DNA from: Methanobacteriota archaeon
Lineage (GTDB): Archaea; Thermoplasmatota; E2; DHVEG-1
Length of the DNA stretch: 64,000 bases
Reading direction: 5' to 3'
Assembly: GCA_963769885.1 (NCBI GenBank)
Contig: CAVYNH010000007.1
Location: 500,163 to 564,162, forward strand
Below the pieces are notes generated by a model. It searched no databases. It worked only from the letters and a program-made list of their open reading frames with translations, and was not told the origin of the DNA. Positions 3,132 to 46,776 of this stretch are shown here, piece after piece. Within the stretch, counting starts at the first letter, position 1; the number at the start of each line of letters is the position of its first letter. Position numbers and translations under genes: made by a program.

Positions 3132-3450
3132 GGTGCTGGGTGTCGGCCGTAAGCCTCTTTTTGTTCTGACGGCATTCGTCTGATGCGCCCTACCCGCGAG
3201 CAATCTGGACAATTGATCCCGCTGTTTGGGCTTGCTCCAAGGGCGGATAAGCCGTTTCACCAACTCCCACGACGACCTCATCACCACACGTGAATCATCG
3301 CATAGATCGCAGGCTGTGCCGTTTCTGTGCCTCCGCAGAGGCTCTCGCCTCTACCGCTTGCACGGTGCCCCGGTCCAGACCGAGAGAGGACTTTCCTCAG
3401 CAAAAACCCCAAGGGTCTTCACCGTCAACCGTCCACCGACGCCCAGCACC
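3132..3450 (-). ncRNA. rnpB: RNase P RNA (archaeal)
   Basis: Minus strand has GAGGAAAGUCC, ACAGAAACGGC, UGAAACGGC, GGAGCAAG and AACAAAAAGAGGCUUA in canonical order; 5' GGUGCUGGGCGUCGGU pairs with 3' GCCGACACCCAGCACC (P1). Confidence 0.95.
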
Positions 3451-3572: not shown

Positions 3573-4736
3573 ATGATCCTTGACCTAACCATCGTCCAAC
3601 AACTCGCCATCCTCCTCCTCACCGCCCTCATCGCCTACCTCATCTTCACCAAAATCAACCAATCCATCATCATCGGCGAAATCCTCCTCGGCATCCTCAT
3701 CGGACCCAGCATCCTCGGCGTCGTCACCTACACCCCCTTCGTCCAAGACATCGCCATGCTCGGCGCCATCCTCCTCCTCTTCGTCATCGGCTTCGAATTC
3801 AAAATCAAAGACGTCTACAACCTCCGCTTCGCCGTCATCGCCACCTTCGGCGTCATCATCCCCTGGATTGCTGGATACTTCTTCGCCCAATACATTGGTT
3901 ATAATTTCATCACCTCATTTTTCATCGGTACGACACTCACGGCCACCAGTATCGCAATCACCGCCAATGTCCTCAGAGAATTAGGGAAGCTCCACACCGA
4001 ACCCGCCCGAGCCATCATCGGCGCCGCGGTCATCGATGACGTGCTCGGGCTTATCGTCCTCTCCTTTGCGACCCAACTCCAACATGGAGCACTCCAGTCC
4101 CTGGATATCCTCAAAATCATCGCCCTAGTCGCCGCGTTCTTCATCATCGGCATCCTGATCGGCCGTCCAGCCGTCCGCTGGCTCATGGAACATTTCGAAC
4201 AAACCACTATAGCCAGGAAGCACGTGGAGACGATCCTAATCCTTGCCTTCGTCATCGCCTTTCTGTTCTCGGCCGCCGCGGAAAGCATCGGCCTCTCAGC
4301 CATCGTCGGCGCATTCCTCGCCGGCATCACCATGGAAGGCGTCAAGGCACGGGAGAACGCCGACTTCCGCAAAGGCGCAGATCACGTTCAGATGATCTTC
4401 GCCCCCGTCTTCTTCATCTCTCTCGGCGTGCTTATCGACTTCCACCAACTCACCACGGACATCATCTGGTTCATCCTCGCGCTCACCGCGATCGCGATCC
4501 TCACCAAGCTCGTCGGCTGCTACCTCGGCGCGCGCATCGGCCACATGAGCCATAAGGACTCCTTGATCGTGGGAATCGGGATGGCACCGCGGGGCGAGGT
4601 CGCCATGATCGTCGCCGTCATCGGCCTCGAAGCCAGCGTCATCACCCAAGAAATCTACACTGCCGTCATTATGATGAGCCTCTTGACGACGCTGTTCGTC
4701 CCCGCAATCCTTCGATACATGAAGTTCCCTGAATAA
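3573..4736 (+). CDS. Cation:proton antiporter (CPA2/Kef-type)
   Basis: GEILLGILIGP, LTATSIAIT, GAAVIDDVLG, GMAPRGEV and many TM helices; the longer 3327 start overlaps rnpB and is rejected. Confidence 0.93.
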   Translation: MILDLTIVQQLAILLLTALIAYLIFTKINQSIIIGEILLGILIGPSILGVVTYTPFVQDIAMLGAILLLFVIGFEFKIKDVYNLRFAVIATFGVIIPWIAGYFFAQYIGYNFITSFFIGTTLTATSIAITANVLRELGKLHTEPARAIIGAAVIDDVLGLIVLSFATQLQHGALQSLDILKIIALVAAFFIIGILIGRPAVRWLMEHFEQTTIARKHVETILILAFVIAFLFSAAAESIGLSAIVGAFLAGITMEGVKARENADFRKGADHVQMIFAPVFFISLGVLIDFHQLTTDIIWFILALTAIAILTKLVGCYLGARIGHMSHKDSLIVGIGMAPRGEVAMIVAVIGLEASVITQEIYTAVIMMSLLTTLFVPAILRYMKFPE

Positions 4737-6306: not shown

Positions 6307-7514
6307 ACTAGTTTCATTTTCTTTCCGATGACGGAGCCGAGGCGCTGGATGCCCGTCTTAATCTGTTCGTTGGTGGAGTAGGAGAAGTTGAGGCGCATGG
6401 AGCTGCCGCCGCTCCCGTCGACGCAGAATGCTTTGCCATGGACGTACGCGACTTTTTCTTTGATAGCGTCGAGGAAGAGCAGCTCGGTGTCGATCTCAGG
6501 GGGGAGCGTCGCCCAGGCGAACATACCGCCGTGGGGTCGCCAGCATTCGTAGCCGTCTGGGAAGAATTCTTTCATGGAGTCGAACATGAGGTCGCGTTTG
6601 GGCTTGTACATCTCGCAGATCTTCATGATGTGGAGGTCCATGGATCCGTTTTCGATGAAGGCGTTGGCGAGGAACTGGGTGAAGGGGGCGGTGCAGAGGT
6701 CGAGGGCTTGTTTGCAGATCGCCATTTTGCGGATGATGGGCTCGTCCGCGATCATCCAGGCGAGGCGGAAGCCGGGGGCGAGGATCTTGGAGAAGGTGGA
6801 GATGTAAATGACTCTGCCTTCGTCGTCGAAGGCTTTGATGGGTTTTTGTGGGGTGCCGTCGTAGCGGAGTTTGCCGTAGGGGTCGTCTTCGAGGATGATA
6901 AGGTCGTATTCGCAGGCGAGGTCGATGAGTTGTTTGCGGCGGGCTTCGGGCATGACGGTGCCGTCTGGGTTTTGGAAGTTGGGGACGGTGTAGATGACCT
7001 TAGGGGTGTGTCCTTCGGCTTTGAGCGCTCTGATTTTGTCTTCGACGAGGTCAGGTTTCATGCCTTGGTGGTCGATGGGGACGCCGACGAGGTTGGTTTC
7101 ATAGCTGCGGAAGGCGTTGATGCCGCCGAGGTAGGTGGGGATGGCGACGATGTTGTAGTCGCCGGGGTTGGTGAACATTTTGGCGACCATGTCCAGTGAT
7201 TGCTGTGAGCCGCTGGTGATGATGATGTTGTCGAATCCGGTTTGGATGCCGTCTTTGCTGGCGCGTTCGGCGAGGGTCTGGCGGAGTTCGTTGATGCCGT
7301 GGGTGGGGCCGTATTGGAGCGCGTTTTTTCCGTATCTTTCGAGGGTGCTTGTGGTGATGGATTGGAGTTCTTTGATGGGGAAGGAGAGGGGGTTGGGGAG
7401 GCCGCCGGCGAAGGAGATGATTTCGGGGTCCTGGGTGAGGCGGAGGAGTTCGCGAATCTCGGATTTGCGCATCTTTCCGGCCCGGTCTGAGTACAGGTGT
7501 TCAATGTCGACCAT
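6297..7514 (-). CDS. PLP-dependent aminotransferase class I (LysN/ARO8-like)
   Basis: ISFAGGLP, LQYG, NFQNPDG, EDDPYG, STFSKILAPGFRLAW, RLNFS. Confidence 0.93.
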   Translation of the reverse strand: MVDIEHLYSDRAGKMRKSEIRELLRLTQDPEIISFAGGLPNPLSFPIKELQSITTSTLERYGKNALQYGPTHGINELRQTLAERASKDGIQTGFDNIIITSGSQQSLDMVAKMFTNPGDYNIVAIPTYLGGINAFRSYETNLVGVPIDHQGMKPDLVEDKIRALKAEGHTPKVIYTVPNFQNPDGTVMPEARRKQLIDLACEYDLIILEDDPYGKLRYDGTPQKPIKAFDDEGRVIYISTFSKILAPGFRLAWMIADEPIIRKMAICKQALDLCTAPFTQFLANAFIENGSMDLHIMKICEMYKPKRDLMFDSMKEFFPDGYECWRPHGGMFAWATLPPEIDTELLFLDAIKEKVAYVHGKAFCVDGSGGSSMRLNFSYSTNEQIKTGIQRLGSVIGKKMKLVCK

Positions 7515-8094: not shown

Positions 8095-8507
8095 TTTGAC
8101 ACCTCCTGCTCAGGATATCGCACTCTGATAAATTAATCTTTCTCCCTATGAGTTTTTGTGAAAAAACGTGAAAAAATGGGGGGTTCAATGGGAGAGAACG
8201 GGAGGGCGATGGCTGCCCCCTGCCCGTCTCTTTGGGTGGTGTTGTTCTTTGTTACCGCGTGATTCGTCGAAGGATGCCGCTGCGGTGTTTCCTCTCTGAA
8301 TTCTGTTGTTCATCCGTCAGGATAAGAACGGTATTTGAACGTGCTCAAAGATTGGTATCGACAAACATGGAAGACGATGAACACACAATTCTACATCGGT
8401 TCCCGAGTGTGTGCTGAGTGGGTTGAGATAAAAAAGGTTATGAATCGTCATTGATTGTCTACCCCAAGGGACGCCAGGGGTTTTCCGCCTTGGATTGTCT
8501 CGCGGTT

Positions 8508-8579
8508 GCGGATGTGATCTAGTGGTTATGATTGAGGCCCTCCAAGCCTCTTGCCCGGGTTCGAATCCCGGCATCCGCA
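8508..8579 (+). tRNA. tRNA-Gly(TCC), with atypical C at position 33
   Basis: Acceptor stem GCGGATG/CATCCGC-A, anticodon arm GAGGC-CCTCCAA-GCCTC, T-loop GGTTCGAATCC. Confidence 0.92.
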
Positions 8580-8587
8580 TCCAGGTT

Positions 8588-8715
8588 GCAGGGGTAGCCA
8601 AGCCTGGCCAACGGCGCAGGACTTAAGATCACAAGGGCTGAAACACAGCGGAAGGTTCGTTGGATGAGACATCCTGTCTCGCAGGAGTCCGAGGGTTCAA
8701 ATCCCTTCCCCTGCA
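8588..8715 (+). tRNA. tRNA-Leu(TAA) with a 43-nt intron (8628-8670) at canonical position 37/38
   Basis: Acceptor GCAGGGG/CCCCTGC-A; CAGGA-CTTAAG[intron]A-TCCTG; BHB central helix CUUA/UGAG with bulges AGA and ACA; long variable arm. Confidence 0.95.
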
Positions 8716-8781
8716 CTCTTTCTTCCACAAGATAATTATTAATACATGAAACAAGATTTATTGTTAGAGGGAGGAAGTAAA

Positions 8782-9651
8782 GTGCAGGAAAAACACAAAA
8801 TCTTTGCAATACTTGCTACAACACTACTTCTCACAGTATCGTGTTTGCCAACAATCTCTATGGCAACCCAAAACCACTCATCGGTCCAAGTGACCACTGA
8901 GGTATACGGTTTACAAAATGATAAACCGAAGACCGTCTCACTCACCGACGAACAATACCAGCAGTTCGAAGAGTACTGCACCAGCTTCCATACAAGACTC
9001 ACACAGGCAACAACCCAAAAGGAAGTCACGCTCCTCTTCAAAGAAGCGGTCGGCGTCCTCCATAGCTACGACCTCCTCCCCGCAGGTATGACCCTCCCTC
9101 AGGCACAACGCATGGTTGAACGCCTTGCGCAAATCTCACAACGACTAAACACTCGAGCAAACACCTACTACTCACAGACCGGCAACCACATCTGCCTCAT
9201 TGCGGGGCACACCACGCAAACATGGTTTACCTCACCCCTTTATGCCTCCCTGTTAGTCCTCTTGTGGCTCATCCAAAAACACGACACTCTCGTCTTCCTC
9301 CTCTTTACCGCTATGATGATGGATGACCTCGTCGATCAATTCATTCCCCTAGCTCCTTTCGATGCTATTAGTTTCGGTGAAGCATGGATGGATGGTTGGG
9401 AAGGACAATGGCACGACGCCTATTCCGAAGGCTGGGTCCATACCTTCGGATTTGGCGGCGCTCACGACTGGAACGGAACATTCAAAGGAGCGCTCACAAT
9501 CGACATCCCCGGAGGCAGCCACCTCTACTCTGATCTCTACCCAGGAGCCACCGGTTTTATCGGTATTAAAACCGAATCCCTGTACCGATCCTCCTTTTAC
9601 CTCGGTCTTGCTCTCAACGTCCAACTTAACAATGTCAATACTACACGCTGA
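8782..9651 (+). CDS. Secreted hypothetical protein (cassette 1 cargo)
   Basis: Signal peptide; SD GGAGG before GTG at 8782; ends GFIGIK...FYLGLA..V. Confidence 0.8.
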   Translation: MQEKHKIFAILATTLLLTVSCLPTISMATQNHSSVQVTTEVYGLQNDKPKTVSLTDEQYQQFEEYCTSFHTRLTQATTQKEVTLLFKEAVGVLHSYDLLPAGMTLPQAQRMVERLAQISQRLNTRANTYYSQTGNHICLIAGHTTQTWFTSPLYASLLVLLWLIQKHDTLVFLLFTAMMMDDLVDQFIPLAPFDAISFGEAWMDGWEGQWHDAYSEGWVHTFGFGGAHDWNGTFKGALTIDIPGGSHLYSDLYPGATGFIGIKTESLYRSSFYLGLALNVQLNNVNTTR

Positions 9652-9700
9652 AATCACAAAAAAAAACATGGCCTGTATTATTAACCTTACTTAGTTGATT

Positions 9701-9756
9701 GTCAATATTTGACGTACCGGTAAACTGGGGTTCAAATCCCTTCCCCTGCACTCTTT
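9701..9756 (+). repeat. att-like unit 1: 27-bp arm plus 29-bp perfect copy of the tRNA-Leu 3' end and trailer
   Basis: GGGTTCAAATCCCTTCCCCTGCACTCTTT at 9728-9756 equals 8693-8721. Confidence 0.95.
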
Positions 9757-9819
9757 TTTACCTGAAAAAGGTTTAAATAACCAAGGGTAATCTATTTGCA
9801 TATAGAGGGCGGGAAAGCA

Positions 9820-10965
9820 ATGATTGGAAATCCTATTGTTAGGAAACATTTGGCGGTTGGAATCATTCTCTTGTTTGTTGGGGCTTGTGTCGTTCCAGTG
9901 ATTGCACAAGATCCTGAAAAACCACTACCGACATCAAGAGGCGATTGGGTATATGTTGGTGGGAGTGGACCTGGGAACTACTCAAAGATTCAGGATGCGA
10001 TCAATAATTCTTCAAGTGGAGGCACCATTTACGTCTTTCATGGTACCTATCATGAGGCAATCACGATCACTGTTTGGAATCTGACGATAATCGGAGAAGG
10101 TAGAGACGTTACAATCATTGATGAGAACTGGACCGATGCCGCGGTGGTGATCGAAAAAAGTTGCGTGAGCCTCCGTGGGTTCACCATCACAGGGAAGAAG
10201 GACGGTATTTATGTTCATGGGGAATTAACCACCATAACGGTTTCTGACAATAATTTTACACAAAATTACTGTGGCGTTGAGTTTCAATACGATTGGGATA
10301 ACTATGATAATGTCATAGAGAACAATATTTTTTATTCAAATCACTGTGGGATTTATTTCGTAAGCGATCTCTGGTTCAATACCATTAGAAACAACTCATT
10401 CATCAATAATTTTGATGGTATGGAAATCAGTGGAAACAATATCAGAGTACTGAATAACACATTTCTGAATTGTCAGGGGAGTGGCATTTCCCTTTATGGC
10501 GGACCATCGATGGTTGAAGGTAATATTTTTACTAAAAATAACATGGGAGTATCTGGTGGTGGTCTGGAACAAACAATTTCTGGAAATCTATTTATTGAAA
10601 ATGATATCGGTCTGAATCTTGGTGGCTCAGGACATACTATCACTGGAAATGTCTTTGAGAATAATTCACTTGGCGTGAGAGTATCTGGTTCCAATACAAA
10701 GGTGAATCAAAACAATTTCATACAGAACGGCAAACACGCACAGTTTGCTGAAGAAAACCGATCGAATGGGAATAACTGGGACAACAATTATTGGAGCGAT
10801 TCATTCCACTTTTTTGGTTACAAGTGCATTTTTGGGAAGATGCACACAAAAATACCAAGGCTTTTACAATTTGATCCATTCAGTACTACCTATTTTTGGA
10901 TTGGATGGATCAACTTCGACAGGCATCCCGCACAAGAACCCTATAGTATTCCAGAAATGAATTGA
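9820..10965 (+). CDS. Secreted NosD-like right-handed parallel beta-helix protein (cassette 2 cargo)
   Basis: Signal peptide, YVGGSGPGNYSKIQDAI, GTYHE, Asn-ladder repeats, NNWDNNYWSD, NFDRHPAQEPY. Confidence 0.9.
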   Translation: MIGNPIVRKHLAVGIILLFVGACVVPVIAQDPEKPLPTSRGDWVYVGGSGPGNYSKIQDAINNSSSGGTIYVFHGTYHEAITITVWNLTIIGEGRDVTIIDENWTDAAVVIEKSCVSLRGFTITGKKDGIYVHGELTTITVSDNNFTQNYCGVEFQYDWDNYDNVIENNIFYSNHCGIYFVSDLWFNTIRNNSFINNFDGMEISGNNIRVLNNTFLNCQGSGISLYGGPSMVEGNIFTKNNMGVSGGGLEQTISGNLFIENDIGLNLGGSGHTITGNVFENNSLGVRVSGSNTKVNQNNFIQNGKHAQFAEENRSNGNNWDNNYWSDSFHFFGYKCIFGKMHTKIPRLLQFDPFSTTYFWIGWINFDRHPAQEPYSIPEMN

Positions 10966-10978
10966 TTGATACTCATCC

Positions 10979-11023
10979 GTCAATCATCGTCGTGCCGTTA
11001 AACCAGGGTTCAAATCCCTTCCC
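10979..11023 (+). repeat. att-like unit 2: 27-bp arm plus tRNA-Leu 3'-end match
   Basis: AGGGTTCAAATCCCTTCCC (11005-11023) equals 8692-8710; arm is 19/27 identical to unit 1 at the same spacing. Confidence 0.9.
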
Positions 11024-11075
11024 TCTCATTTTTTTCCTGCGATGCATCCTGAGAACAGAAAACTTTAAATATGAA

Positions 11076-11137
11076 ATGTTATATATACATAACATATTGT
11101 TATAGATAAATAATAAAATGTTATCACCAACACACAT
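11076..11137 (+). promoter_or_regulatory. Three tandem operator-like palindromes (TGTTAT-N6-ATAACA consensus) downstream of TATA TTTAAATA
   Basis: TGTTAT at 11077, 11098 and 11119; first copy is the perfect palindrome ATGTTAT-ATATAC-ATAACAT; an XRE HTH gene lies downstream. Confidence 0.7.
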
Positions 11138-11155
11138 TGAAAAGAGGTGAAATGC

Positions 11156-11560
11156 ATGAAAGAAAAATTAGAAATGATCACGGGGCTGATAATAGTAATT
11201 GTCGTGTTCCTGACACTTCTCATCTATGCCATGAACATCGGAATATTAGATATGGAAAAATTTGGATTATTTGTCATCGCCATTCTGCTAGTGTCGGCAG
11301 TCCTCTACATCCTCTGGGATCGAGCAAAAAACGTAAGAAAAGGACTGCCAGCGAAGGACGAACGGCTAATAAATATCACCTACAAGGCTGGACATAACGG
11401 ATTTATCGCAGCAACACTCAGCAGCGTTTTCGCCCCAGTGCTCTCAAGCATTCTCCTCAATCGAGAACTCGAGGGCCACCATGTGACCAGCATCGTGGTT
11501 CTTGTTTCAGGCTTTGTCTTCATTGTATCATATTTGCTTCTGGCGAGGAGAGGGAAGTAG
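11156..11560 (+). CDS. DUF2178-like membrane protein (cassette 3)
   Basis: Four TM helices, DER...I..KAG motif, SD GAGGTGA. Confidence 0.8.
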   Translation: MKEKLEMITGLIIVIVVFLTLLIYAMNIGILDMEKFGLFVIAILLVSAVLYILWDRAKNVRKGLPAKDERLINITYKAGHNGFIAATLSSVFAPVLSSILLNRELEGHHVTSIVVLVSGFVFIVSYLLLARRGK

Positions 11561-11563
11561 CCT

Positions 11564-11761
11564 ATGAAAACACGCATCAAGGAACTCCGGGCGCGATACG
11601 ATCTCACCCAAGAGGACCTTGCGAAGAAAGTAGGAGTCCGACGAGAAACAATCCTCTTCATAGAGAAGGGAAACTACAATCCCTCACTCCAACTAGCCCA
11701 CGATATCGCACAAGCCTTGCAGACAACCATCGATGACTTGTTTCTATTTGACGATAAATAA
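11564..11761 (+). CDS. XRE/Cro-family HTH transcriptional regulator
   Basis: [40 protein letters not shown]. Confidence 0.95.
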
Positions 11762-11774
11762 GAGAAGCGCCATC

Positions 11775-11819
11775 GTCACCTCTTGTCATGCTGAAAATCT
11801 GGGGGTCAAATCCTTTTCC
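11775..11819 (+). repeat. att-like unit 3 (degenerate arm plus degenerate tRNA-Leu 3' end)
   Basis: GGGGTCAAATCCTTTTCC has 3 mismatches to GGGTTCAAATCCCTTCCC; GTCA begins exactly 27 bp upstream as in units 1 and 2. Confidence 0.75.
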
Positions 11820-11898
11820 TTGAGCTTATCTATTTTTTCTTCGCTGAGAAGCACGGTACATTTTAATATCTTCAACCAATAACGACGGGGAGAAAAAG

Positions 11899-12618
11899 AT
11901 GGATTCTGATATGAACCAAGAAAGGACGAAAAAGCCAAGAATCACGAAGAAAATCGCGATCGCGGGCGGGACTCTTCTGATTCTAGGAATGTTATCATGT
12001 GCTGGAGCCGCGTCCGTCTTTGCCTACAACCTCGGAACGGATAGCGAAGGCTATGCCTACAGCAACGTGTACCATGTGAATACCTCCGCGTACACCTTCG
12101 CCTTGTACATGAACGAATACAAGCTCTCGGCCTGGGGCTTCCTAGGATCCTCGAACATTGCCCAGATGAAATTCATCGCACAACCAACCAACTCAAAAGA
12201 CCTCTTCGTCGGCATTGCGACAACCTCGGCAAGCCAGGCCTACCGCCAGAGCTTCGAGTGCGAGATACCCACGTGGTGGCACTGGTGGGCCGAGCCGTAC
12301 TACGCGGAGATCTTCATCAACACCACCGCCATCGATGGCACCGGCGCGCCGCAGCTCCCCCAGGGCCAGACGTTCTGGCTCGCGTCAGCCCATTCGAACT
12401 CCACCGCGACGATGACCTATCTTCCACTACATGAGCAGCATATCTGGTTCGTGATGAACCTCGACGGCTCACAAAACGTGTCGGCCGACATCCAACTCGC
12501 GTTCCGCTCACCGATTCTCACCATCCTCCCCTACATCCTAGTTCCGATGGGGATTGTTCTGCTCGGGGCCGGCGTATATCTCCTCAGAATGAGAAAACGC
12601 AAGAGCGAAGTCCGCTAG
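11899..12618 (+). CDS. Membrane-anchored hypothetical protein (N- and C-terminal TM)
   Basis: 239-aa ORF; DSEGY motif, VMNLDGS..V.AD, C-terminal TM plus basic tail. Confidence 0.8.
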   Translation: MDSDMNQERTKKPRITKKIAIAGGTLLILGMLSCAGAASVFAYNLGTDSEGYAYSNVYHVNTSAYTFALYMNEYKLSAWGFLGSSNIAQMKFIAQPTNSKDLFVGIATTSASQAYRQSFECEIPTWWHWWAEPYYAEIFINTTAIDGTGAPQLPQGQTFWLASAHSNSTATMTYLPLHEQHIWFVMNLDGSQNVSADIQLAFRSPILTILPYILVPMGIVLLGAGVYLLRMRKRKSEVR

Positions 12619-13496
12619 TGCTCGCAGCGCGCACCGCTTGCACACCGGTCACACTCCGCCTGGATCACCGAGTGCGTGATGTTGTACTTCACCTTGAGCA
12701 TCTCATTGATCTGTCCGATAATCGAGTTCAAGGCGTTCACATCCTCGGTGTCGATGACGATATGCGAGCTTAAGGCGCAGACATCGGATGCGATACTCCA
12801 GATATGCAGGTCATGGATCTCCTTCACCCGAGGAATCCTGCGGATATCATCGGAGACCTGCTGCAAATCGATATTCTTGGGGACCGCCTCCATCAGGATG
12901 CGCACCGACTCCCGGATGAGACCCAGACAATTCACCAGGATGAACACCCCAATGGCTGCGCTCACGATCGGATCGAAAATATAATTCCCGGTCAGGATGA
13001 TGAGAGCCCCCCCACACACGACACCGACCGAGGAAATCGTGTCGCTGAGGACATGCAGGTACGCACCCCGCACGTTGAGGTTCTCCCGCTCATCCCCATG
13101 CATCTTAATCACGACATAAAGGTTCGCCGCTAGACCAACCACCGCAATGACAAACATCTCAGGCCCGTTGATCGGCTGCGGGGTACGGAACCGCAGATAC
13201 GACTCATAGAAGATCAGGATGGTCAGCAGGAACAATACGATGGCGTTCGCCATCGCCGCGAGAATCTCAGCCCGATAATACCCATACGTGAACTGCTGCG
13301 TCGTCCCTCTCCTCGCGAGACGCAGCGCAAAATACGCGAGCAGCAACGCAAGCAGGTCGATGAGGACATGCCCCGCATCGCTGAAGAGCGCCAGACTGTT
13401 GGTGATGACGCCGCCAGCGACCTCCATGAGCAGGACGAACAGGGACAGCCAGATGAAAACCCGGAACTTCTTCTGGATGGCATCCCGCTGCATCAT
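12615..13496 (-). CDS. Cation diffusion facilitator (CzcD/ZitB-like Zn/Co/Cd exporter)
   Basis: SLALFSDAGH..D, TYGYYRAE, NVRGAYLHVLSD, HDLHIW. Confidence 0.95.
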   Translation of the reverse strand: MMQRDAIQKKFRVFIWLSLFVLLMEVAGGVITNSLALFSDAGHVLIDLLALLLAYFALRLARRGTTQQFTYGYYRAEILAAMANAIVLFLLTILIFYESYLRFRTPQPINGPEMFVIAVVGLAANLYVVIKMHGDERENLNVRGAYLHVLSDTISSVGVVCGGALIILTGNYIFDPIVSAAIGVFILVNCLGLIRESVRILMEAVPKNIDLQQVSDDIRRIPRVKEIHDLHIWSIASDVCALSSHIVIDTEDVNALNSIIGQINEMLKVKYNITHSVIQAECDRCASGARCEH

Positions 13497-17038: not shown

Positions 17039-19853
17039 AGACCTCGACGGGGCGGAGGACGGCTTTGAGGATGCGGCCGGTGTAGCTGCGTTGGTTTCGT
17101 GAGACTTCTTCGGGTGTGCCTTCGGCGACGATCTCTCCGCCATGGTCGCCTCCTTCGGGGCCGAGGTCGATGATGTGGTCCGCGATTTTGATGACTTCCA
17201 TGTTGTGTTCGATGATGACGACGGTGTTGCCTTTGTCGACGAGGTGGTTGAGGACGTCGTTGAGTTTCTTGACGTCGTGGAAGTGCAGGCCTGTCGTTGG
17301 TTCGTCGAGGAGGTAGAGGGTGCGTCCGGTGTCGCGTTTGGCGAGTTCTCTGGTGAGTTTGATGCGTTGGGCTTCGCCGCCTGAGAGCGTGGTGGCGCTC
17401 TGGCCGAGTTTGATGTAGCCGAGGCCGACGTCCACGAGGGTCTGTAGTTTCTTGCGGATGGCGGGGATGTGTGTGAAGAGGTCGAGGTTTTCTTCGACGC
17501 TCATGGCGAGGACGTCGGCGATGGATTTGCCTTTGTAGGTGACTTCGAGGGTCTCTTTGTTGTAGCGTTTGCCTTTGCAGTCTTCGCATTCGACGTAGAT
17601 GTCGGGGAGGAAGTTCATCTCGATTTTGATGAGGCCGTCGCCTTGGCAGGCTTCGCAGCGGCCGCCGTGGACATTGAAGGAGAAGCGGCCGGGGGTGTAG
17701 CCGCGGATCTTGGCTTCTTGGGTCTGGGCGAAGACGGATCTGATCTCGTCGAAGATCTTAGTGTAGGTCGCGGGGTTGCTGCGGGGGGTGCGGCCGATGG
17801 GGCTTTGGTCGATGACGATGACCTTGTCGATGGGGGTGTCGCAGGTGATGGTGTCGTGTTTGCCGGGCTGGTCTTTGGATTCGTGGAGTTGGCGCATGAG
17901 GCCTTTGTAGAGGATCTCGTAGACGAGGGTGGATTTGCCGCTGCCCGAGACTCCGGTGATGACGGTGAGGAGGCCGATGGGGATGTTGATGGTGAGGTTT
18001 TTGAGGTTGTTTTCTTTGCAGCCGGTGAGGGTGATGTAGTCGTGGGGCTGACGTCGTGTTTTGGGGATGGGGATGACGAGCTTGTGGGAGAGGTATTTGC
18101 CGGTGAGTGATTTTGGGTTGCGGGCGATCTCTTCCGGTGTTCCTTTGGCGATGACGAAGCCGCCGTGGACGCCGGCGCCTGGTCCCATGTCGATGACGTA
18201 GTCTGCGCTGCGGATGGTTTCTTCGTCGTGTTCGACGACGATGAGGGTGTTGCCTTGGTCGCGGAGTTTGTGGAGGGTGTCGATGAGTTTTTTGTTGTCC
18301 CATTGGTGCAGGCCGACGCTGGGTTCGTCGAGGATGTAGAGAACGCCCATGAGGTTGGAGCCGATTTGGGTGGCGAGGCGGATGCGTTGGGCTTCTCCGC
18401 TGGAGAGGGTCCCGGTGTTGCGGTTGAGGGTGAGGTAGTTGAGGCCGACCCGGTCGAGGAAGTAGAGGCGACTGAGGATTTCTTTGAGGATGAGTCTGGC
18501 GATGTCTTCTTCTTTTTTGGTGAGGGGGAGGTCGTTGAAGAAGTCGATGGCTTGTGTGATGCTCATGGCGGTGGTGTCGTAGATGGATTTGTCGTTGATG
18601 CGGACGGCGAGGACTTTGTCTTTGAGGCGGCGGCCTTTGCAGGCGGGGCAGGGAGAGATTCGCATGAAGCGTTCGAGTTCTTCTCTGCGGTAGGGGGATT
18701 CGGTTTGTTTGTAGAGGCGTTCGGATTGGGGGATGAGGCCTTCCCAGTGGCCTTGGTGGGACCAGTGGGATTCGCCGTTTTTCATGCTGATGTTGTACCG
18801 GATTTGGTCCTCGGATCCGTACATGAGGGCGTGGTATTGGTCGTCGGTGAGGTCTTGGATGGGGGTGAAGAGGTCGTAGCCGAAGTGTTTGGCGACGGCG
18901 CCGAGGTAGTAGTTGCGCCAGCCTTCGCGGGCGGTGCGGTAGAGTTTGATGGCGCCGTCGGCGATGCAGAGGGTTTTGTCGGGGATGATGAGGTCGGGGT
19001 CGAAGTCCATGCGGATGCCGAGGCCGTGGCAGGTTTCGCAGGCGCCGAACGGGCTGTTGAAGCTGAACATGCGGGGTTGGAGTTCTTCGAAGGCGAGGCC
19101 GCAGACGGGGCAGGCGAGTCGGCTGGAGTAGAGGTATTCTTGGTTTTTTTTGTCGAGGACGAGGAGGAGGCCGTCTGATTTTTTGAGGGCGTTTTCGCAG
19201 GCTTCGGTGAGGCGTGTGGTGTCGGTGGGGGTGAGGCGGTCGATGACGACGTCGATGTCGTGCATCTTGTAGCGTTCGAGAGGGATTTTTTCGTCGGTGC
19301 GGATGATGGTTTTGTTGACGCGGGCGCGGGTGTAGCCTTCGGTGTTGAGGTCTTTGAGGAGTTGTTCGTAGGTGCCTTTTTTCTGCCGTATGATGGGGGA
19401 GAGGATGGTGATCATGCCGGTGTGTTCGTTTTGGATGCGGGCGGCGATTTTCTCTGGGGTCTGGGCTTCGATGCGGAGGTTGTGTTCGGGGCAGTGGGGG
19501 CGTCCGATGCGGGCGTAGAGGAGTCTGAGGTAGTCGTAGATTTCGGTGATGGTGCCGACGGTGCTGCGGGGGTTTTTGCTGGTGGTTTTTTGTTCGATGG
19601 AGATTGCGGGTGAGAGGCCTTCGATGGCGTCGACGTCGGGTTTGTTCATGAGGCCGAGGAACTGGCGGGCGTACGCAGACAGTGATTCGACGTAGCGGCG
19701 TTGGCCTTCGGCGTAGATGGTGTCGAAGGCAAGCGTGGATTTGCCGCTACCACTAAGTCCTGTGATGACGATGAATTTGTCTCTGGGGAGCTCGACGGTG
19801 ATGTTTTTAAGGTTGTGTTCGCGGGCTCCTTTGATAATGATGGCTTTTGGCAT
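17031..19853 (-). CDS. uvrA: Excinuclease ABC subunit A
   Basis: GAREHNLKN, two Walker A motifs ([16 protein letters not shown]), zinc fingers, LSGGEAQR. Confidence 0.98.
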
Positions 19854-43605: not shown

Positions 43606-45753
43606 ATGAAGAAGAGGCTTTCTATCGGAGTTACCCTGGCCATCACCGTGCTGCTGCTGGGCACCGCACTCCCACGCCTAGCCGCAGCAATGCAGGACTC
43701 ATCGTCCACCATCACCCTGACTTATCCCTTTGCCACGCCGCAGATCTCCACGGTCGATATTGAGCAGACCCGGTACGACACGGTGAGCATCGCGGGCGCC
43801 CCCAACATCGGCCGCGCCGGAGACCCCAGCCTGCCCGCCGCCCCCGCCTATATCCTGCTACCACCCAAGACCACCGTAGCGACAGTCACTATCCACGGCA
43901 CGGCGACATCACTCGGTACAGGCTACCACATCGTCCCCGTCAGCGACACCCTTCCGCTCACCGCCGATCCTCGGCCTCCCACCCCCAACCCCAACGTCTA
44001 CTCCCAGGACACCGCCATCCCCGTGCACCAGTACCAACTCGAAGGCGTCTACCAGCAACGCGGCTTCACCATCCTCGTCCTCTCCCTGTACCCAGTCCAG
44101 TATCGGCCTGTCTCCGGCGAGTTATCCTTCTGCCCCTCTCTTGAGGTGACCGTGAGTCTCGCCCCAGCGGCAGCCTCACCACTCTACAGAGGCCTTCCAC
44201 AGGACTTCAACTTGATTCGCACCCGGGTCGACAACCCCTCCATGCTCTCCGCCTACCAGCCGAAGACCGCCGCCCGGTCTACCGCAGATGTTCTCATCCT
44301 TACGACGACCGCGCTGCAGCCCGGGTTTGCACCCCTCGCCGCTGAGCACAACGCCACCGGCAAAAAAACGATTATCCGCACCCTCACCGATGTCGGCGGC
44401 AGCGACACCGAGATGATCCGCACCTACATCCGCACCCAATATACGACCCTGGGGATCTCCTATGTGCTCCTCGGGGGAGACGACGGCGTCGTCCCCGACC
44501 GACAACTCTGGGTCGAAGGCATGGATGAAGGAACGACCCACTACGAAGACTTCATGCCCAGCGACATTTACTACGGCTGTCTCGACGGCCCTTACAACTA
44601 CGACGGCGACAACAAATGGGGCGAGCCTAACGATGGGACGAACGGCGGGGACGTTGACCTCATGGCCGAGGTGTACGTCGGCCGCGCCTGCGTCGACAAC
44701 AGCGCGAACGTAGCCGCCTTCGTCGCCAAGACCGTCTCCTATTTGAATACCACCAACGACTCGTACCTGAGGAAAACCCTCCTCGCCGGCGAGTACCTCG
44801 GGGACTATGGGATCGCCTCCTACGGCTCCAGCTACATGGAACAGCTCATGAACGGCTCAACCGCCGACAACTACACCACGGTAGGCATCCCCGCGTCCGT
44901 CTACCAGGTCCAGCGGCTCTACGATGAGGTCGGCTGGTCCGCCTACGACATGATGCAGGCCATCGACAACGGCGTACACTTCATCAACCATCTTGGTCAC
45001 GCGAACGAACAATACAACATGAAGATGGACATGTCGGACGTCGACGCGTTGACGAACACCAAGTACTGTTTCATCTACTCGCAGGGCTGTTACTCGGGCG
45101 CGTTCGATGACATGGAATGCATGGCTGAGGAGTTCACGGCCAAGACCATCCATGGCGCGTTCGCCGGCGTCTGGAACGCCCGCTACGGGTTCTTCTGGTC
45201 GTTCAGCACCGATGGGGATTCCCAGCGGCTGCACCGCCAGTTCTGGGATGCGGTGTTTGGCGAGAATAAGACCACCGTCGGCGCGGCGAACCATGACTGC
45301 AAGGAGGATAACCTCTATATCATCACCCGGTCCTGCATCCGATGGTGCATCTATCAGACAAACCTCTTCGGCGACCCCGCGGCCGACCTGATCAGCAACG
45401 TCGCGCCACCACCGCCACCACCACCACCTGTTTGGCCTCCTCATACCTCCATAGTCAATGTGACCGGTGGCAAGGCTGTCCTGCATTTCACCATCGCGAA
45501 TGTCGGGAATGTAACCGCGGAGAATGTCACCTGGCATGTTCAGATTACTGGCGGGATCTTCCACCGGATTAGCCTCGCTGGAAACGGTGGCCCGTTTAAC
45601 CTCAGCGTCAATGAGACAAAGACCGAGGACAGGTCGTTAGGACTCTTTGGCTTGGGGAGCGTCACGGTCCAGGTGAACGTGTCGTACGCGGCCCAATGGA
45701 ACGGGACTGGCTTCGCGCTGGGGCCGTATCTGCTGAAAGTCGCGAAGGTTTAG
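43606..45753 (+). CDS. Gingipain-like C25 family cysteine peptidase with propeptide
   Basis: G.P.LP propeptide, YVLLGGD, SDIYYGCLDG, VYVGR, catalytic NHLGH and YSQGC, NLFGDP. Confidence 0.93.
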   Translation: MKKRLSIGVTLAITVLLLGTALPRLAAAMQDSSSTITLTYPFATPQISTVDIEQTRYDTVSIAGAPNIGRAGDPSLPAAPAYILLPPKTTVATVTIHGTATSLGTGYHIVPVSDTLPLTADPRPPTPNPNVYSQDTAIPVHQYQLEGVYQQRGFTILVLSLYPVQYRPVSGELSFCPSLEVTVSLAPAAASPLYRGLPQDFNLIRTRVDNPSMLSAYQPKTAARSTADVLILTTTALQPGFAPLAAEHNATGKKTIIRTLTDVGGSDTEMIRTYIRTQYTTLGISYVLLGGDDGVVPDRQLWVEGMDEGTTHYEDFMPSDIYYGCLDGPYNYDGDNKWGEPNDGTNGGDVDLMAEVYVGRACVDNSANVAAFVAKTVSYLNTTNDSYLRKTLLAGEYLGDYGIASYGSSYMEQLMNGSTADNYTTVGIPASVYQVQRLYDEVGWSAYDMMQAIDNGVHFINHLGHANEQYNMKMDMSDVDALTNTKYCFIYSQGCYSGAFDDMECMAEEFTAKTIHGAFAGVWNARYGFFWSFSTDGDSQRLHRQFWDAVFGENKTTVGAANHDCKEDNLYIITRSCIRWCIYQTNLFGDPAADLISNVAPPPPPPPPVWPPHTSIVNVTGGKAVLHFTIANVGNVTAENVTWHVQITGGIFHRISLAGNGGPFNLSVNETKTEDRSLGLFGLGSVTVQVNVSYAAQWNGTGFALGPYLLKVAKV

Positions 45754-45798
45754 GAGAACAAACCCTTTAAAGCGCGGCAGCGGTTCGGGAGAAGCGGA

Positions 45799-46776
45799 AT
45801 GCCCAGATCGCTGCCGCGTTGGGTCAAGCTCCTACTGCCGTTTATCGGGTTAGCCTTCTTCGTCTATCTTATCTATATGTTGGACGTCCGCAGCATTGTT
45901 GCCGCGTTCTTTAGAATCAATCCGGTGTACGTGCTGGCAGCGCTGTCGCTTGCGGCTCCAGTGTTGGTGCTTCGTCTGTTTGCCTGGCAGTGGATTAATC
46001 GGGCACAGCACATCAAAATTGGCTACTTGCGTCTGGCGAAGGTGTACCTCATCGGGCTGTTCTATGGGGTGGGGACGCCGGGGTACTTCGGTCAGCTGAT
46101 GCGGGTGCCGTACATGAAGAAGCCGTCGGGGGAGCCGTACGGCAAGCTTTTTGTCAACGTAACCCTAGAGACGTACATCCATACCCTGTCGTTATATGCG
46201 ATGATGGTGGTGGGGGCTGTGGTGGTCGCGAGTCTGCTGCCGCAGTTGCTATGGCTGACGATCGTGTGGGTGGGGGTGATGGTGGGGCTGTTTTTGGTAT
46301 TGAAGAAGAAGGAGCGGGGGGATGCGGTGTTCCGGCGGCTGGTGCGGTGGGGGGTGCCGGGGCGGTTCCGTGATCAGGTGAGTTCGTTTACGGATACGTT
46401 TTATCTGGATTTTCCGCATCTTCGGTCGTTCGTGGTACCGGTATTGGTGGGGGCGGTGACGTGGGTGTTGATGTTTTCGCAGGAGTATTGTATGGTGTTG
46501 GCGTTGGGGCTGCCGATTCCGTATCTGTATTATCTGGTGTTGTTCCCGATTGCGAATGTGGCGGGGTTTATCCCCATCTCGGTGGCGGGGTTGGGGACGC
46601 GGGAGTTGACGGCGGTGGTGATTTTTACGACGTTGTTTAATGTGCCGGGGGCGGAGGTGTTCGTGGTGTCGTTGGCGGGGTTCATGGTGACGGATGTGTT
46701 TTTGGCGGTGATCGGGTTTGTGTTGTCGCTGACGGAGGCGCGGCATCCGAAGGCGGTGCAGATCGTGGAGGAGTAG
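45799..46776 (+). CDS. Lysylphosphatidylglycerol-synthase TM domain / UPF0104 flippase-like protein
   Basis: Multi-TM; TPG..G...R, PIS.AGLGTRE. Confidence 0.85.
   Translation: MPRSLPRWVKLLLPFIGLAFFVYLIYMLDVRSIVAAFFRINPVYVLAALSLAAPVLVLRLFAWQWINRAQHIKIGYLRLAKVYLIGLFYGVGTPGYFGQLMRVPYMKKPSGEPYGKLFVNVTLETYIHTLSLYAMMVVGAVVVASLLPQLLWLTIVWVGVMVGLFLVLKKKERGDAVFRRLVRWGVPGRFRDQVSSFTDTFYLDFPHLRSFVVPVLVGAVTWVLMFSQEYCMVLALGLPIPYLYYLVLFPIANVAGFIPISVAGLGTRELTAVVIFTTLFNVPGAEVFVVSLAGFMVTDVFLAVIGFVLSLTEARHPKAVQIVEE

Follow-up and report, generated by a model that had tools for sequence, protein, structure and literature searches.

Cassettes stacked at an archaeal tRNA-Leu gene: likely satellites of tRNA-targeting integrative elements

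In an uncultured Thermoplasmatota archaeon, three or four small foreign gene modules stand downstream of a tRNA-Leu gene. We consider it likely that this array is a stack of non-autonomous, CIME-like integrative cassettes that use the att site of a tRNA-Leu-specific element family. The arm that precedes each displaced tRNA end also closes larger elements carrying an Xer-like integrase, which suggests that the cassettes are satellites of ordinary tRNA-targeting integrative elements and that they were most likely moved in trans. The first-pass annotation of this DNA had proposed a new integron-like platform; that part of its reading does not hold, as larger self-mobile elements have this arm as their attP arm. 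Although its effect resembles that of an integron, the array is not one; it represents an archaeal form of a known way of building islands, with behaviour close to that of an integron. No description of the phenomenon was found in the literature searched.

Organization of the Array

Coordinates are those of the window, the whole stretch of 64,000 nucleotides that was analysed (Table 1). The anchor gene (C7:508750-508878, located by ARAGORN with introns allowed) lies 4 nt behind tRNA-Gly(TCC), and the same pair of tRNA genes is found in six relatives. Its terminal 25 to 29 nt recur at 9728, 11006 (or 11005, depending on the reading) and 11802, with a homologous arm before each copy. When the sequence was read directly, the matches of 29/29, 19 nt and 15/18 given by the first-pass annotation were reproduced. 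The repeats form a family (D1) of four in-register copies starting at 8666, 9701, 10979 and 11775, of which arm+core 1 is the reference copy; the spacing of 1035, 1278 and 796 bp agrees with the three units of about 1.0, 1.3 and 0.8 kb described earlier. Units 1 to 3 are AT-rich, with 39-48% GC compared to 53-58% in the flanks. Putative TATA-like boxes are visible by inspection, and cassette 2 has a TTTAAATA box at 9771-9778. As had been claimed, no integrase or replication gene was found in the array by Pfam searches of the array and by PF00589 and PF16795 scans, the former extended across the whole genome.

Table 1. Features of the array and its flanks (window coordinates)
Feature	Position	Strand	Description
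tRNA-Gly(TCC)	8507..8583	+	ARAGORN; Rfam 62.1 bits; conserved upstream neighbour of the anchor tRNA-Leu(TAA)
tRNA-Leu(TAA), 43-nt intron after anticodon loop	8588..8716	+	Rfam RF00005 39.8 bits; ARAGORN -i; anchor gene (attL)
Core 0, T-arm to 3' end of tRNA-Leu(TAA), GGGTTCAAATCCCTTCCCCTGCACT	8693..8717	+	attB-type site
Cassette 1	8718..9700	+	One gene, secreted or membrane protein; GC 47.7%
Arm+core 1	9701..9752	+	Arm 9701-9727 (GTCAAT...ACCGGTAAACTG), core 9728-9752 perfect; nhmmer E=2e-18
Cassette 2	9753..10978	+	Gene 9820-10965, secreted right-handed beta-helix (NosD-like) protein; GC 39.4%
Arm+core 2	10979..11030	+	Core: left 18 nt perfect, right part diverged (TCTCAT)
Cassette 3	11031..11774	+	Small membrane protein gene and XRE-type HTH regulator gene; GC 42.8%
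Arm+core 3, degenerate	11775..11826	+	65% identity to reference copy; core 15/18; nhmmer E=5e-13
Unit 4	11827..12618	+	One gene, 11899-12618; GC 53.9%
czcD-like cation-diffusion-facilitator gene	12615..13496	-	Pfam Cation_efflux 3e-49; conserved chromosomal flank; then uvrB, uvrC

The gene of cassette 1 spans 8782-9651 if started at a GTG behind GGAGG (the open reading frame is listed as 8746-9651); its protein matched no Pfam family and has paralogues in other arrays. The protein of cassette 2 matched the Pfam families NosD (1.4e-17) and Beta_helix (3.2e-17), and homologous cassettes occur in five relatives. Cassette 3 encodes a DUF6773/DUF2178-like membrane protein (11147-11560, below the Pfam cut-offs) and the HTH regulator (11564-11761; HTH_3 4.2e-15), and similar cassettes occur in three other arrays. 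This gene pair was found outside arrays as well. The unit 4 protein has membrane anchors at its N- and C-terminus and matched no Pfam family. Since no right-hand site is detectable for unit 4, it may be either an old cassette or native flank; it is collinear with czcD in the relative from run X2, and nitroreductase and GNAT genes stand in its place in the same-genus genome G001.

Anatomy and Distribution of the Recombination Site

The core extends from the T-arm to the 3' end of the tRNA (GGGTTCAAATCCCTTCCCCTGCA). The arms of 27 nt quoted earlier are present and arms 1 and 2 do share 19/27 positions, but the true arm is about 45-60 nt long and falls into three subtypes. The P arm of the cassettes terminates in ACCGGTAAAYTG, and the consensus from 169 arm-motif copies, among 241 distinct core copies, is (A/G)CCGGTAA(A/T)(C/T)TG followed by G(G/T)GTTCAAATCCCTTCCCCTGCA. 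An 18-mer of the core gave 31 genome matches with up to three mismatches and none for the reversed control, and arm and core together gave no control matches in 118 genomes; chance origin of the repeats is therefore excluded. Arm and core together are present in 45 of the 118 genomes of the order, all 45 in one family. Further matches came from 106 metagenome contigs and from 23 stretches of GTDB genomes with the titles Thermoplasmatota, Thermoplasmata or Thermoplasmatales. The sequence of core 0 is identical in tRNA-Leu CAA, GAG and CAG of the same genome, and all four genes that share it have at least one arm+core copy downstream; none was found downstream of tRNA-Leu(TAG), which has a divergent T-arm. 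Targeting is thus evidently sequence-specific.

Another reading holds that arm and tRNA tail are a functional RNA module, a tRNA-like 3' processing signal or terminator, copied together with the genes. The T-run of the tRNA terminator is kept in every arm+core copy, and in the short arm subtype AGGAG can pair imperfectly with the acceptor 3' strand. However, RNAalifold on 48 copies returned no consensus structure (energy 0), the conserved part is one uninterrupted DNA block (CCGGTAA) that shows no covariation, the copies are restricted to arrays or to positions downstream of tRNA-Leu, and integrase-bearing elements are closed by the same arm. We regard this reading as extremely improbable.

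Integrase-Bearing Elements in Relatives

The cognate tyrosine recombinase anticipated by the first-pass annotation was found behind tRNA-Leu in relatives and is absent from the source assembly (tblastn; 92% complete) as well as from G001. It is an Xer-like protein of 313-316 aa with SAM-like N-terminal domains (PF00589 7.5e-21; NF040815 136-164 bits), encoded together with an open reading frame of 181-184 aa about 50 nt behind tRNA-Leu CAA, CAG, GAG or TAA. The family occurs in 16/118 genomes, in only six of which it lies directly behind tRNA-Leu. The elements that carry it are closed by the same arm and core as the cassettes and measure 9-18 kb, two of them being complete to the far end: L286, from tRNA-Leu(CAG) at 800-885 to arm+core at 18435-18489, and L287, from tRNA-Leu(CAA) at 9522-9609 to arm+core at 124-189. 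The latter, alone of the two, encodes an MCM helicase, together with a resolvase. Among about 140 arm+core loci there were only two recombinase genes, neither of the Leu type. As the cognate enzyme is encoded by neither the arrays nor the source genome, the earlier suggestion of a recombinase acting in trans gains support, and we infer that the integrase of these elements acts on the cassettes in this way. For the same reason, the arrays of the source genome are probably products of visiting elements and static at present.

On the P' side, 5/6 integrase-bearing loci repeat ACCGGTAAA at a distance of 6 nt beyond the core, either unchanged or with no more than two changes. This motif follows only 8/241 core copies and most cassettes do not have it, so circles of motif-less cassettes may be poor substrates that move only together with a full element.

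Exchange of Cassettes Between Genomes

A census yielded 131 cassettes (113 distinct; median 1033 bp), 70 of them with a single gene. By sequence they fall into 97 clusters, six of which were seen with different neighbours, and arrays reach six to seven sites per contig with up to six cassettes. Open reading frames end close against the arm+core sites, and the cargo is mostly secreted or membrane proteins, in line with the surface and membrane cargo proposed before.

Comparisons of related genomes show that the cassettes, bounded by arm and tRNA end as the first-pass annotation had it, are discrete units with site-specific mobility that are swapped between genomes. First, a DUF3795 cassette stands in three arrays whose flanks are unrelated, with break points in the T-loop part of the core: the shared segment begins near core position 13, includes the genes and the arm belonging to the cassette, and stops near position 12 of the following core. 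Between genomes with a backbone identity of 74.3%, this cassette is 96.2% identical. Second, a nitroreductase cassette (G001:C1:449-1759 and G000:C4:200050-198743) is 93.3% identical and begins exactly at the core, compared to only 84% in the collinear czcD-uvrB flank. Third, the relatives L147 and L111 are 98.3% identical through the last tRNA base and unrelated beyond it. Hybrid cores, in which the left half is that of the upstream cassette and the right half that of the downstream cassette, support strand exchange inside the core.

Relatives of the source strain were compared through Logan contigs (k=31), in which mis-joins are possible at repeats of at least 31 nt. In those from runs X3 and X6, cassette 1 is present at 95-97% identity and the sequence differs after 9752. 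In the X2 relative (92-96% identical), one contig joins 11021 to 11818, inside core 2; cassette 3 is absent from this relative, with another cassette exactly at its position, and the DNA upstream of the joint is an unlike stretch of about 1.4 kb. The excised circles or empty sites of the source strain that had been expected were not seen in these contigs, and no circular metagenome contig was found.

The units could instead be immobile scars, that is, deletion remnants of large integrase-bearing elements with old attR sites as their arm+core copies. In favour of this, there are large elements that have the same arm and an integrase of their own, the source genome has no cognate integrase, and CIMEs and degenerate tycheposon remnants are documented to arise by tandem integration and later decay (PMC5704250; bioRxiv 10.1101/2020.12.28.424599). 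Site quality also drops with distance from the tRNA in this array, where core mismatches number 0, 0, 3 and 6 by rank. The latter agrees with the earlier claim that the newest cassette lies nearest the tRNA; elsewhere, perfect cores are found in the interior of arrays and certain cassettes take degenerate half-cores along with them, so the claim is no general rule. Scars would not, however, place one compact cassette in three arrays with different neighbours and break points within the core, at identities far above those of the backbone; nor was any integrase fragment found in the 131 cassettes, whose genes sit tight against the sites in units of about 1 kb. Deletion may have given rise to the cassettes, but it leaves their present distribution unexplained, and we consider the scar explanation unlikely.

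Homologous recombination through arms, cores and gene ends, with no site-specific recombinase at work since the first integrations, would be a further route. Comparison of L144 with L106 places the change in identity (91.8% to 99.75%) outside the core, in a conserved stretch that codes for a C-terminus and lies 50-80 nt upstream of the arm; one 2-kb cassette was lost between two similar 130-nt ends. The position of this change indicates homologous rather than site-specific recombination, which thus adds reshuffling of arrays at conserved arms. As the only process it is improbable, more so than scars: in the DUF3795 and nitroreductase cassettes homology stops within the 25-nt core, too little for a homologous route, the flanks beyond are unrelated (tRNA body against arm, or different arm subtypes), and the hybrid cores favour exchange inside the core.

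In the satellite model, which we prefer, each cassette is made up of a left end that is promoter-proximal, a single gene or a few genes, and a P arm of 45-60 nt. The Xer-like recombinase, supplied by the 9-18 kb elements and encoded with its 181-aa partner behind tRNA-Leu, would exchange strands in the T-loop part of the core. A circular cassette could insert into the tRNA or into any core that the array already contains, restoring the tRNA and displacing a tRNA-tail copy downstream, and recombination between two cores would free a single cassette or a block of cassettes, with homologous recombination between arms as an extra source of reshuffling.

Comparison With Known Systems

The closest parallel is the accretion of CIMEs in tandem at the 3' ends of tRNA and other genes, as in the ICESt1/ICESt3 family of streptococci (PMC5704250, PMC7563491). 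In both cases, integration and transfer genes were lost or never present, att sites akin to an autonomous element's are kept, units stack at the target gene with the most decayed sites farthest from it, and the cargo is adaptive. Compared to CIMEs, the present system differs in several respects. The host is archaeal, and the autonomous partner is a tRNA-Leu-specific element with an Xer-like integrase rather than an ICE or IME and is usually missing from the array or even the genome. Most cassettes are about 1 kb long and consist of one gene with a promoter-like box of its own, and docking takes place in parallel at four isoacceptor tRNA genes. Furthermore, a given cassette occurs by itself in different arrays, a pattern that implies mobilisation one by one and not only as composites. 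In the tycheposon islands of Prochlorococcus (bioRxiv 10.1101/2020.12.28.424599), elements with tyrosine recombinases likewise target tRNA genes, and successive integrations push older ones inward and leave partial tRNAs and degenerate remnants across the islands. The integrase-less units described here, in contrast, are compact and have a conserved arm in common; the same units turn up again in other genomes, and they outnumber integrase-bearing elements (sites in 45/118 genomes, the integrase family in 16/118).

Integrons (IntI, attI and attC, including those of archaeal MAGs) also hold ordered, small, mostly co-oriented and mostly single-gene cassettes that have a recombination site as their boundary, come from a large and diverse pool and pass between genomes. 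Here, however, no integrase is fixed at the array head, the cassettes bring promoter-like boxes of their own, a mobile element carries the recombinase, which is Xer-like, and the sites are direct repeats of tRNA end and arm, with no conserved structure found, rather than folded attC hairpins.

Integration of archaeal plasmids and viruses into the 3' part of tRNA genes by tyrosine recombinases is well documented, including the "gene capture" of She et al. 2001 (as cited in PMC8371274) and the pT26-2 family (PMC6972569), and tandem integration and integrase loss are both known. The archaeal integrative-element literature searched gave no description of arrays of many minimal cassettes with a shared arm. 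Unlike that of SSV-type elements, the Leu-type integrase is not split: a PF16795 signal is lacking, and an intact gene adjoins attL.

Structure of the tRNA-Leu array

Sequence comparison suggests that the cassettes stacked behind tRNA-Leu(TAA) are non-autonomous elements carrying the attP arm of a tRNA-Leu-specific family of integrative elements. In the array, the part of the tRNA between the T-arm and the 3′ end, starting at the GGG of the T-stem (the 25-nt core), is repeated directly and in tandem, and the intact tRNA is kept at attL. A homologous non-tRNA arm precedes all three downstream copies; counted from the tRNA, successive copies are 1035, 1278, and 796 bp apart. The GC content is 39–48% in units 1 to 3 and 53–58% in the flanks. 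No integrase or replication gene was found in the array by Pfam searches of all window ORFs or with the PF00589 and PF16795 profiles; PF00589 has no match in the window, and all eight matches in the genome (G000; 2.09 Mb in seven contigs, 92% complete) lie elsewhere. The first-pass annotation had described the tRNA-end copies, arms, unit sizes, genes, and missing integrase, and was right in every checked detail.

Features of the window, of contigs C1 to C7 of genome G000, and of complete elements in relatives
Feature	Coordinates	Description
Archaeal RNase P RNA gene	window 3138-3444 (-)	Rfam RF00373, 175 bits
tRNA-Gly(TCC)	window 8507-8583	
tRNA-Leu(TAA)	window 8588-8716	43-nt intron; starts 4 nt past tRNA-Gly(TCC)
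Unit 1	window 8718-9700	Secreted/membrane protein without known family
tRNA-end copy	window 9728	29/29 match
Unit 2	window 9753-10978	Secreted NosD-like beta-helix protein
tRNA-end copy	window 11006	18-19 nt match
Unit 3	window 11031-11774	Small membrane protein and XRE HTH regulator
tRNA-end copy	window 11802	15/18 match
Unit 4	window 11827-12618	Beyond last copy; doubly anchored membrane protein; abuts czcD-like gene
czcD-like gene	window 12615-13496 (-)	Followed by uvrB, uvrC
Array	C7:164944-166426	Behind tRNA-Leu(CAG)
Array	C6:740946-742919	Behind tRNA-Leu(GAG)
Array	C4:197692-200111	Behind tRNA-Leu(CAA)
Orphan arm+core array	C6:290451-292378	tRNA-free site
Core-only copies	C1:67752; C7:75855/76768	
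Second Xer-like family, two paralogues	C6:676482-677504; C4:123922-124917	86% identical, ~335 aa; island-like surroundings
tRNA-Leu(CAG)/tRNA-His	C7:166341-167940	Back to back; 415-aa integrase of another family directly after tRNA-His
Complete element in G097 (L286)	G097:C291; 181-aa ORF L286:938-1483; integrase L286:1465-2412	17.6 kb; ends in arm+core, arm subtype A
Complete element in G070 (L287)		9.4 kb; MCM helicase and serine resolvase; ends in arm+core, arm subtype C

Core mismatches by rank in the window array number 0, 0, 3, and 6, which is consistent with the earlier proposal that the newest insertion lies nearest the tRNA. The proposal does not extend to a general rule, as other arrays have perfect cores at internal ranks; across arrays, mean mismatches at ranks 0, 1, and 2 are 0.1, 1.9, and 3.2, a trend that is not monotonic in every array.

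Distribution and anatomy of the site

Within G000, the combined arm and core also lies downstream of tRNA-Leu(CAA), tRNA-Leu(GAG), and tRNA-Leu(CAG), the three others with the same T-arm, as well as in the orphan array. No downstream repeat follows tRNA-Leu(TAG), whose T-arm is divergent, and this gene is a natural negative control. With up to three mismatches allowed, the site was found in 45 of the 118 genomes of the order, all belonging to one family; a reversed control pattern had no match in the same 118. GTDB species genomes, from uncultured Thermoplasmatota, Thermoplasmata, and Thermoplasmatales MAGs, contain the site in 23 stretches, and it is also present on 106 metagenome contigs, on which arrays reach six to seven sites. 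The site, for which the first-pass annotation had proposed a profile scan, is both genome-wide and family-wide.

The arm is 45–60 nt long and occurs in three subtypes, all of which end directly 5′ of the core in (A/G)CCGGTAA(A/T)(C/T)TG; many arms also have GTCAA(C/T) repeats farther upstream. These repeats and ACCGGTAAAYTG are candidate binding sequences for the integrase and the 181-aa protein described below. No conserved secondary structure of the arm or site was found by RNAalifold among 48 copies. A coding origin of the arm was rejected on account of stop codons in differing frames among the copies. Some type A arms overlap a conserved gene end; at positions 6915-7032 and 8953-9070 of one locus (L106), two unrelated cassette genes have the same conserved C-terminal coding stretch running into a type A arm.

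The Leu-type integrase and its elements

Searches of about 140 arm+core loci with integrase profiles (hmmsearch and phmmer) found just two recombinase genes, neither of them of the type described here. The hunt took in every PF00589 match of nine relatives that bear the site and then the whole order, which was searched with the protein. In relatives, a Xer-like tyrosine recombinase of 313–316 aa, preceded by an ORF of 181–184 aa of unknown function, lies directly behind tRNA-Leu. Members of the wider family of this Leu-type integrase are present in 16 of the 118 genomes of the order, and the integrase has 1069 database homologues. Its only domains are a SAM-like core-binding domain and the catalytic domain, and it scores highest against the XerA model and just 19–50 bits against integron-integrase models. 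The closest members (55–100% identity) are located behind tRNA-Leu of the CAA, CAG, GAG, and TAA types, and one of these (G074:C72) occupies the Gly-Leu(TAA) locus that holds the array in the window. More distant clades are found behind tRNA-Ser, Arg, Gly, and Glu; the clade of an integrase seems to correspond to the identity of its tRNA. Sister clades lie ~580 bp behind tRNA-Ser(GGA/GCT), Arg(GCG), Gly(GCC/CCC), and Glu(TTC/CTC), with the 181-aa partner in the same position (loci L258, L262-L268, L270, L273-L278, and L281).

Two complete autonomous elements are known here, L286 and L287, and in both the order is tRNA-Leu, 181-aa ORF, integrase, and an arm+core of a cassette subtype. On the tRNA-proximal side of five of the six integrase loci, a further copy of ACCGGTAAA, either perfect or altered at one or two positions, stands 6 nt after the core, so that the motif lies on both sides of the core as a direct repeat. 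Most cassettes do not have this second (P′) copy, because it accompanies just 8 of 241 core copies.

Homologues of the integrase and its partner were found neither in the G000 assembly nor in G001, a genome of the same genus; since the G000 assembly is incomplete (92%), the organism itself may still carry them. A candidate for the co-occurring tyrosine recombinase sought since the first-pass annotation exists on the elements of relatives and is absent from the G000 assembly. Most site-bearing genomes lack the integrase, and its scarcity among them fits a visiting enzyme, as weak evidence given MAG incompleteness. Another idea is that the arrays have a resident recombinase, supplied by the second Xer-like family of G000. 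Relatives of this family are found just upstream of tRNA-Cys and tRNA-Val and not beside Leu arrays; near an inverted Leu core, at a distance of ~200 nt, there is just a C-terminal remnant of it, in two loci (L144 and L106). In the mechanism that we propose, the integrase of the Leu-type family would move the cassettes whenever such an element visits, and the cassettes may move singly in trans or in blocks along with that element.

The G000 assembly showed no canonical XerA. The 415-aa integrase behind tRNA-His probably comes from a separate tRNA-His element. In IMG/VR viral contigs, the exact arm+core, the core alone, and relatives of the Leu-type integrase had no match.

Cassettes as discrete mobile units

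The census of all fetched DNA comprises 131 cassettes, 113 of them distinct, with sizes of 240–4762 bp (median 1033 bp). A single gene is carried by 70 of the 113 distinct cassettes, and ~70% of cassette ORFs are co-oriented with the tRNA. Most of the characterised proteins are secreted (beta-helix, beta-propeller/PKD, and carboxypeptidases); beta-propeller and PKD families are common to cassettes and large elements, and deletion intermediates between the two were not seen. The cassettes form 97 sequence clusters, six of which were seen with different neighbours.

Comparison of cassette content and order across relatives, suggested at the outset for the tRNA of the window, bore out that cassettes are exchanged as units. 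First, a DUF3795 cassette is present in three arrays (L111, L127, and L049) that differ in the subtype of the upstream arm and have unrelated sequences downstream. What they share extends from around position 13 in the left core, through the genes and the arm of the cassette, to around position 12 in the right core. Such limits may reflect an exchange of strands within the T-loop (TTCAAAT) portion of the core. Between two genomes with 74.3% identical backbones, this cassette is 96.2% identical. Second, G001 carries a nitroreductase cassette in the array leading to czcD-uvrB, and its G000 counterpart, 93.3% identical, is the first cassette behind tRNA-Leu(CAA); the homology begins exactly at the core, and the czcD-uvrB flank is just 84% identical between the two genomes. 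Third, the similarity of two metagenome contigs, 98.3% identical as far as tRNA-Leu(TAA) reaches, stops at the final base of this gene, and beyond it they are wholly different.

Data from relatives were compared with the window as public Logan contigs (k=31), not raw reads, and uncovered parts are uninformative. In a wetland relative (run X2, 92–96% identical), position 11021 is followed directly by 11818 on one contig, a joint that falls within cores 2 and 3, with ~1.4 kb of different DNA upstream of it and czcD-uvrB still collinear; cassette 3 has therefore been replaced exactly. Other relatives have cassette 1 at 95–97% identity and diverge right after the core at 9752. A joint in X2 that goes back from 10971 to 9743 was considered as an excised circle and is best read, tentatively, as another cassette order, and the joints 8618-8690 and 8630-9727 are other tRNA-Leu genes. 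None of 80 metagenome loci was a circular contig carrying the site.

Hybrid cores combine a perfect left half, which goes with the upstream arm, and a mutated right half, which goes with the downstream cassette; likewise, variants in the left half (G2T) accompany the arm, and those in the right half accompany the next cassette. These comparisons would place strand exchange between core positions 3 and ~13.

Not all reshuffling appears to be site-specific. Three cassettes that make up a distal block of 2.4 kb are 99.75% identical between loci L144 and L106, compared to 91.8% in the tRNA-proximal parts, and L144 lacks one 2-kb cassette present in L106. The switch point lies 50–80 nt upstream of the arm, within a conserved gene end, which indicates homologous recombination between repeated ends.

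Comparison with known systems

Compared to integrons, the system works in a similar way but fails both defining tests. First, an integron has IntI and attI at the head of the array, whereas no integrase heads the window array. Second, attC inverted repeats fold as single-strand hairpins, whereas the repeats here are direct copies of tRNA end plus arm with no consensus structure. The earlier term "integron-like" is thus apt for the effect and not for the machinery.

Cis-mobilizable elements (CIMEs) and tandem accretion are known for streptococcal ICEs and IMEs (PMC5704250, PMC7563491), successive tRNA-targeted integrations build Prochlorococcus islands (bioRxiv 10.1101/2020.12.28.424599), and tandem integration and integrase loss have been noted in archaea (PMC8371274). 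As in CIMEs and tandem accretion, no integrase, excisionase, transfer, or replication genes lie inside the units. The att sites are related to those of integrase-encoding autonomous elements, here arm subtypes A and C of L286 and L287, and core mismatches in the window array likewise rise with distance from the target gene. Repetition of the segment from T-arm to 3′ end with an intact tRNA at attL is shared with elements of tRNA-targeting tyrosine recombinases of the T-loop sublocation. In SSV-type elements, int(N) and int(C) flank the element and attP lies within the int gene, whereas the integrase of the relatives is intact beside attL. A split integrase of this type was rejected: the best PF16795 match (E=0.28) lies elsewhere in the genome, and arm stop codons fall in differing frames. 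By analogy, the arrangement seems to follow the logic of CIMEs with tandem accretion and of the Prochlorococcus integrations.

Compared to these known cases, the present system is unusual in several respects. The cassettes are minimal in size and very numerous, they persist in genomes without any partner element, four isoacceptor tRNA-Leu genes are used in parallel, and transfer of single cassettes between genera is clear. No prior description of an arm+core cassette system was found in the literature library searched.

A more far-reaching reading, which we consider rather unlikely, is that the cassettes are not mere wreckage but a pool, maintained across the family, of over 100 single-gene modules with their own promoters, inserted, excised, and exchanged by visiting Xer-like integrase elements at four tRNA-Leu docking sites per genome. 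In function, such a pool would be the archaeal equivalent of an integron: it would diversify the proteins of the cell surface and would generate its cassettes by a route of its own.

Thermoplasmatota of sediments are abundant and uncultured, and their gene acquisition is poorly understood. In these archaea, one short site, an arm and a tRNA-Leu tail, identifies many small gene modules that together form a large pool open to exchange. The site provides a sequence handle with which to catalogue the accessory surface proteome of the lineage, to follow strain-level turnover in metagenomes, and to test an archaeal integrase on natural substrates. Integron-like cassette arrays can come about through ordinary integration at tRNA genes, with neither IntI nor attC involved.

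Additional observations

The gene pair of cassette 3 is also found in relatives (L074, L075, L076, and L078) with no arm+core nearby, and the gene family is therefore not confined to cassettes. Intron-containing tRNAs are present in G000 and, along with the RNase P RNA of archaeal type, bear out its assignment to this domain; a "tRNA-Stop(tta)" called by ARAGORN with introns at window 45690-45826 (C7:545852-545988) is probably false, being below the Rfam tRNA threshold. In the complete chromosome CP070836 (L072, G003:C1), masked N stretches at 3803-4198 and 18211-18513 lie directly beside two arm+core copies. The cargo of the G000 arrays includes two M14 carboxypeptidase cassettes, 79% identical, at different loci.
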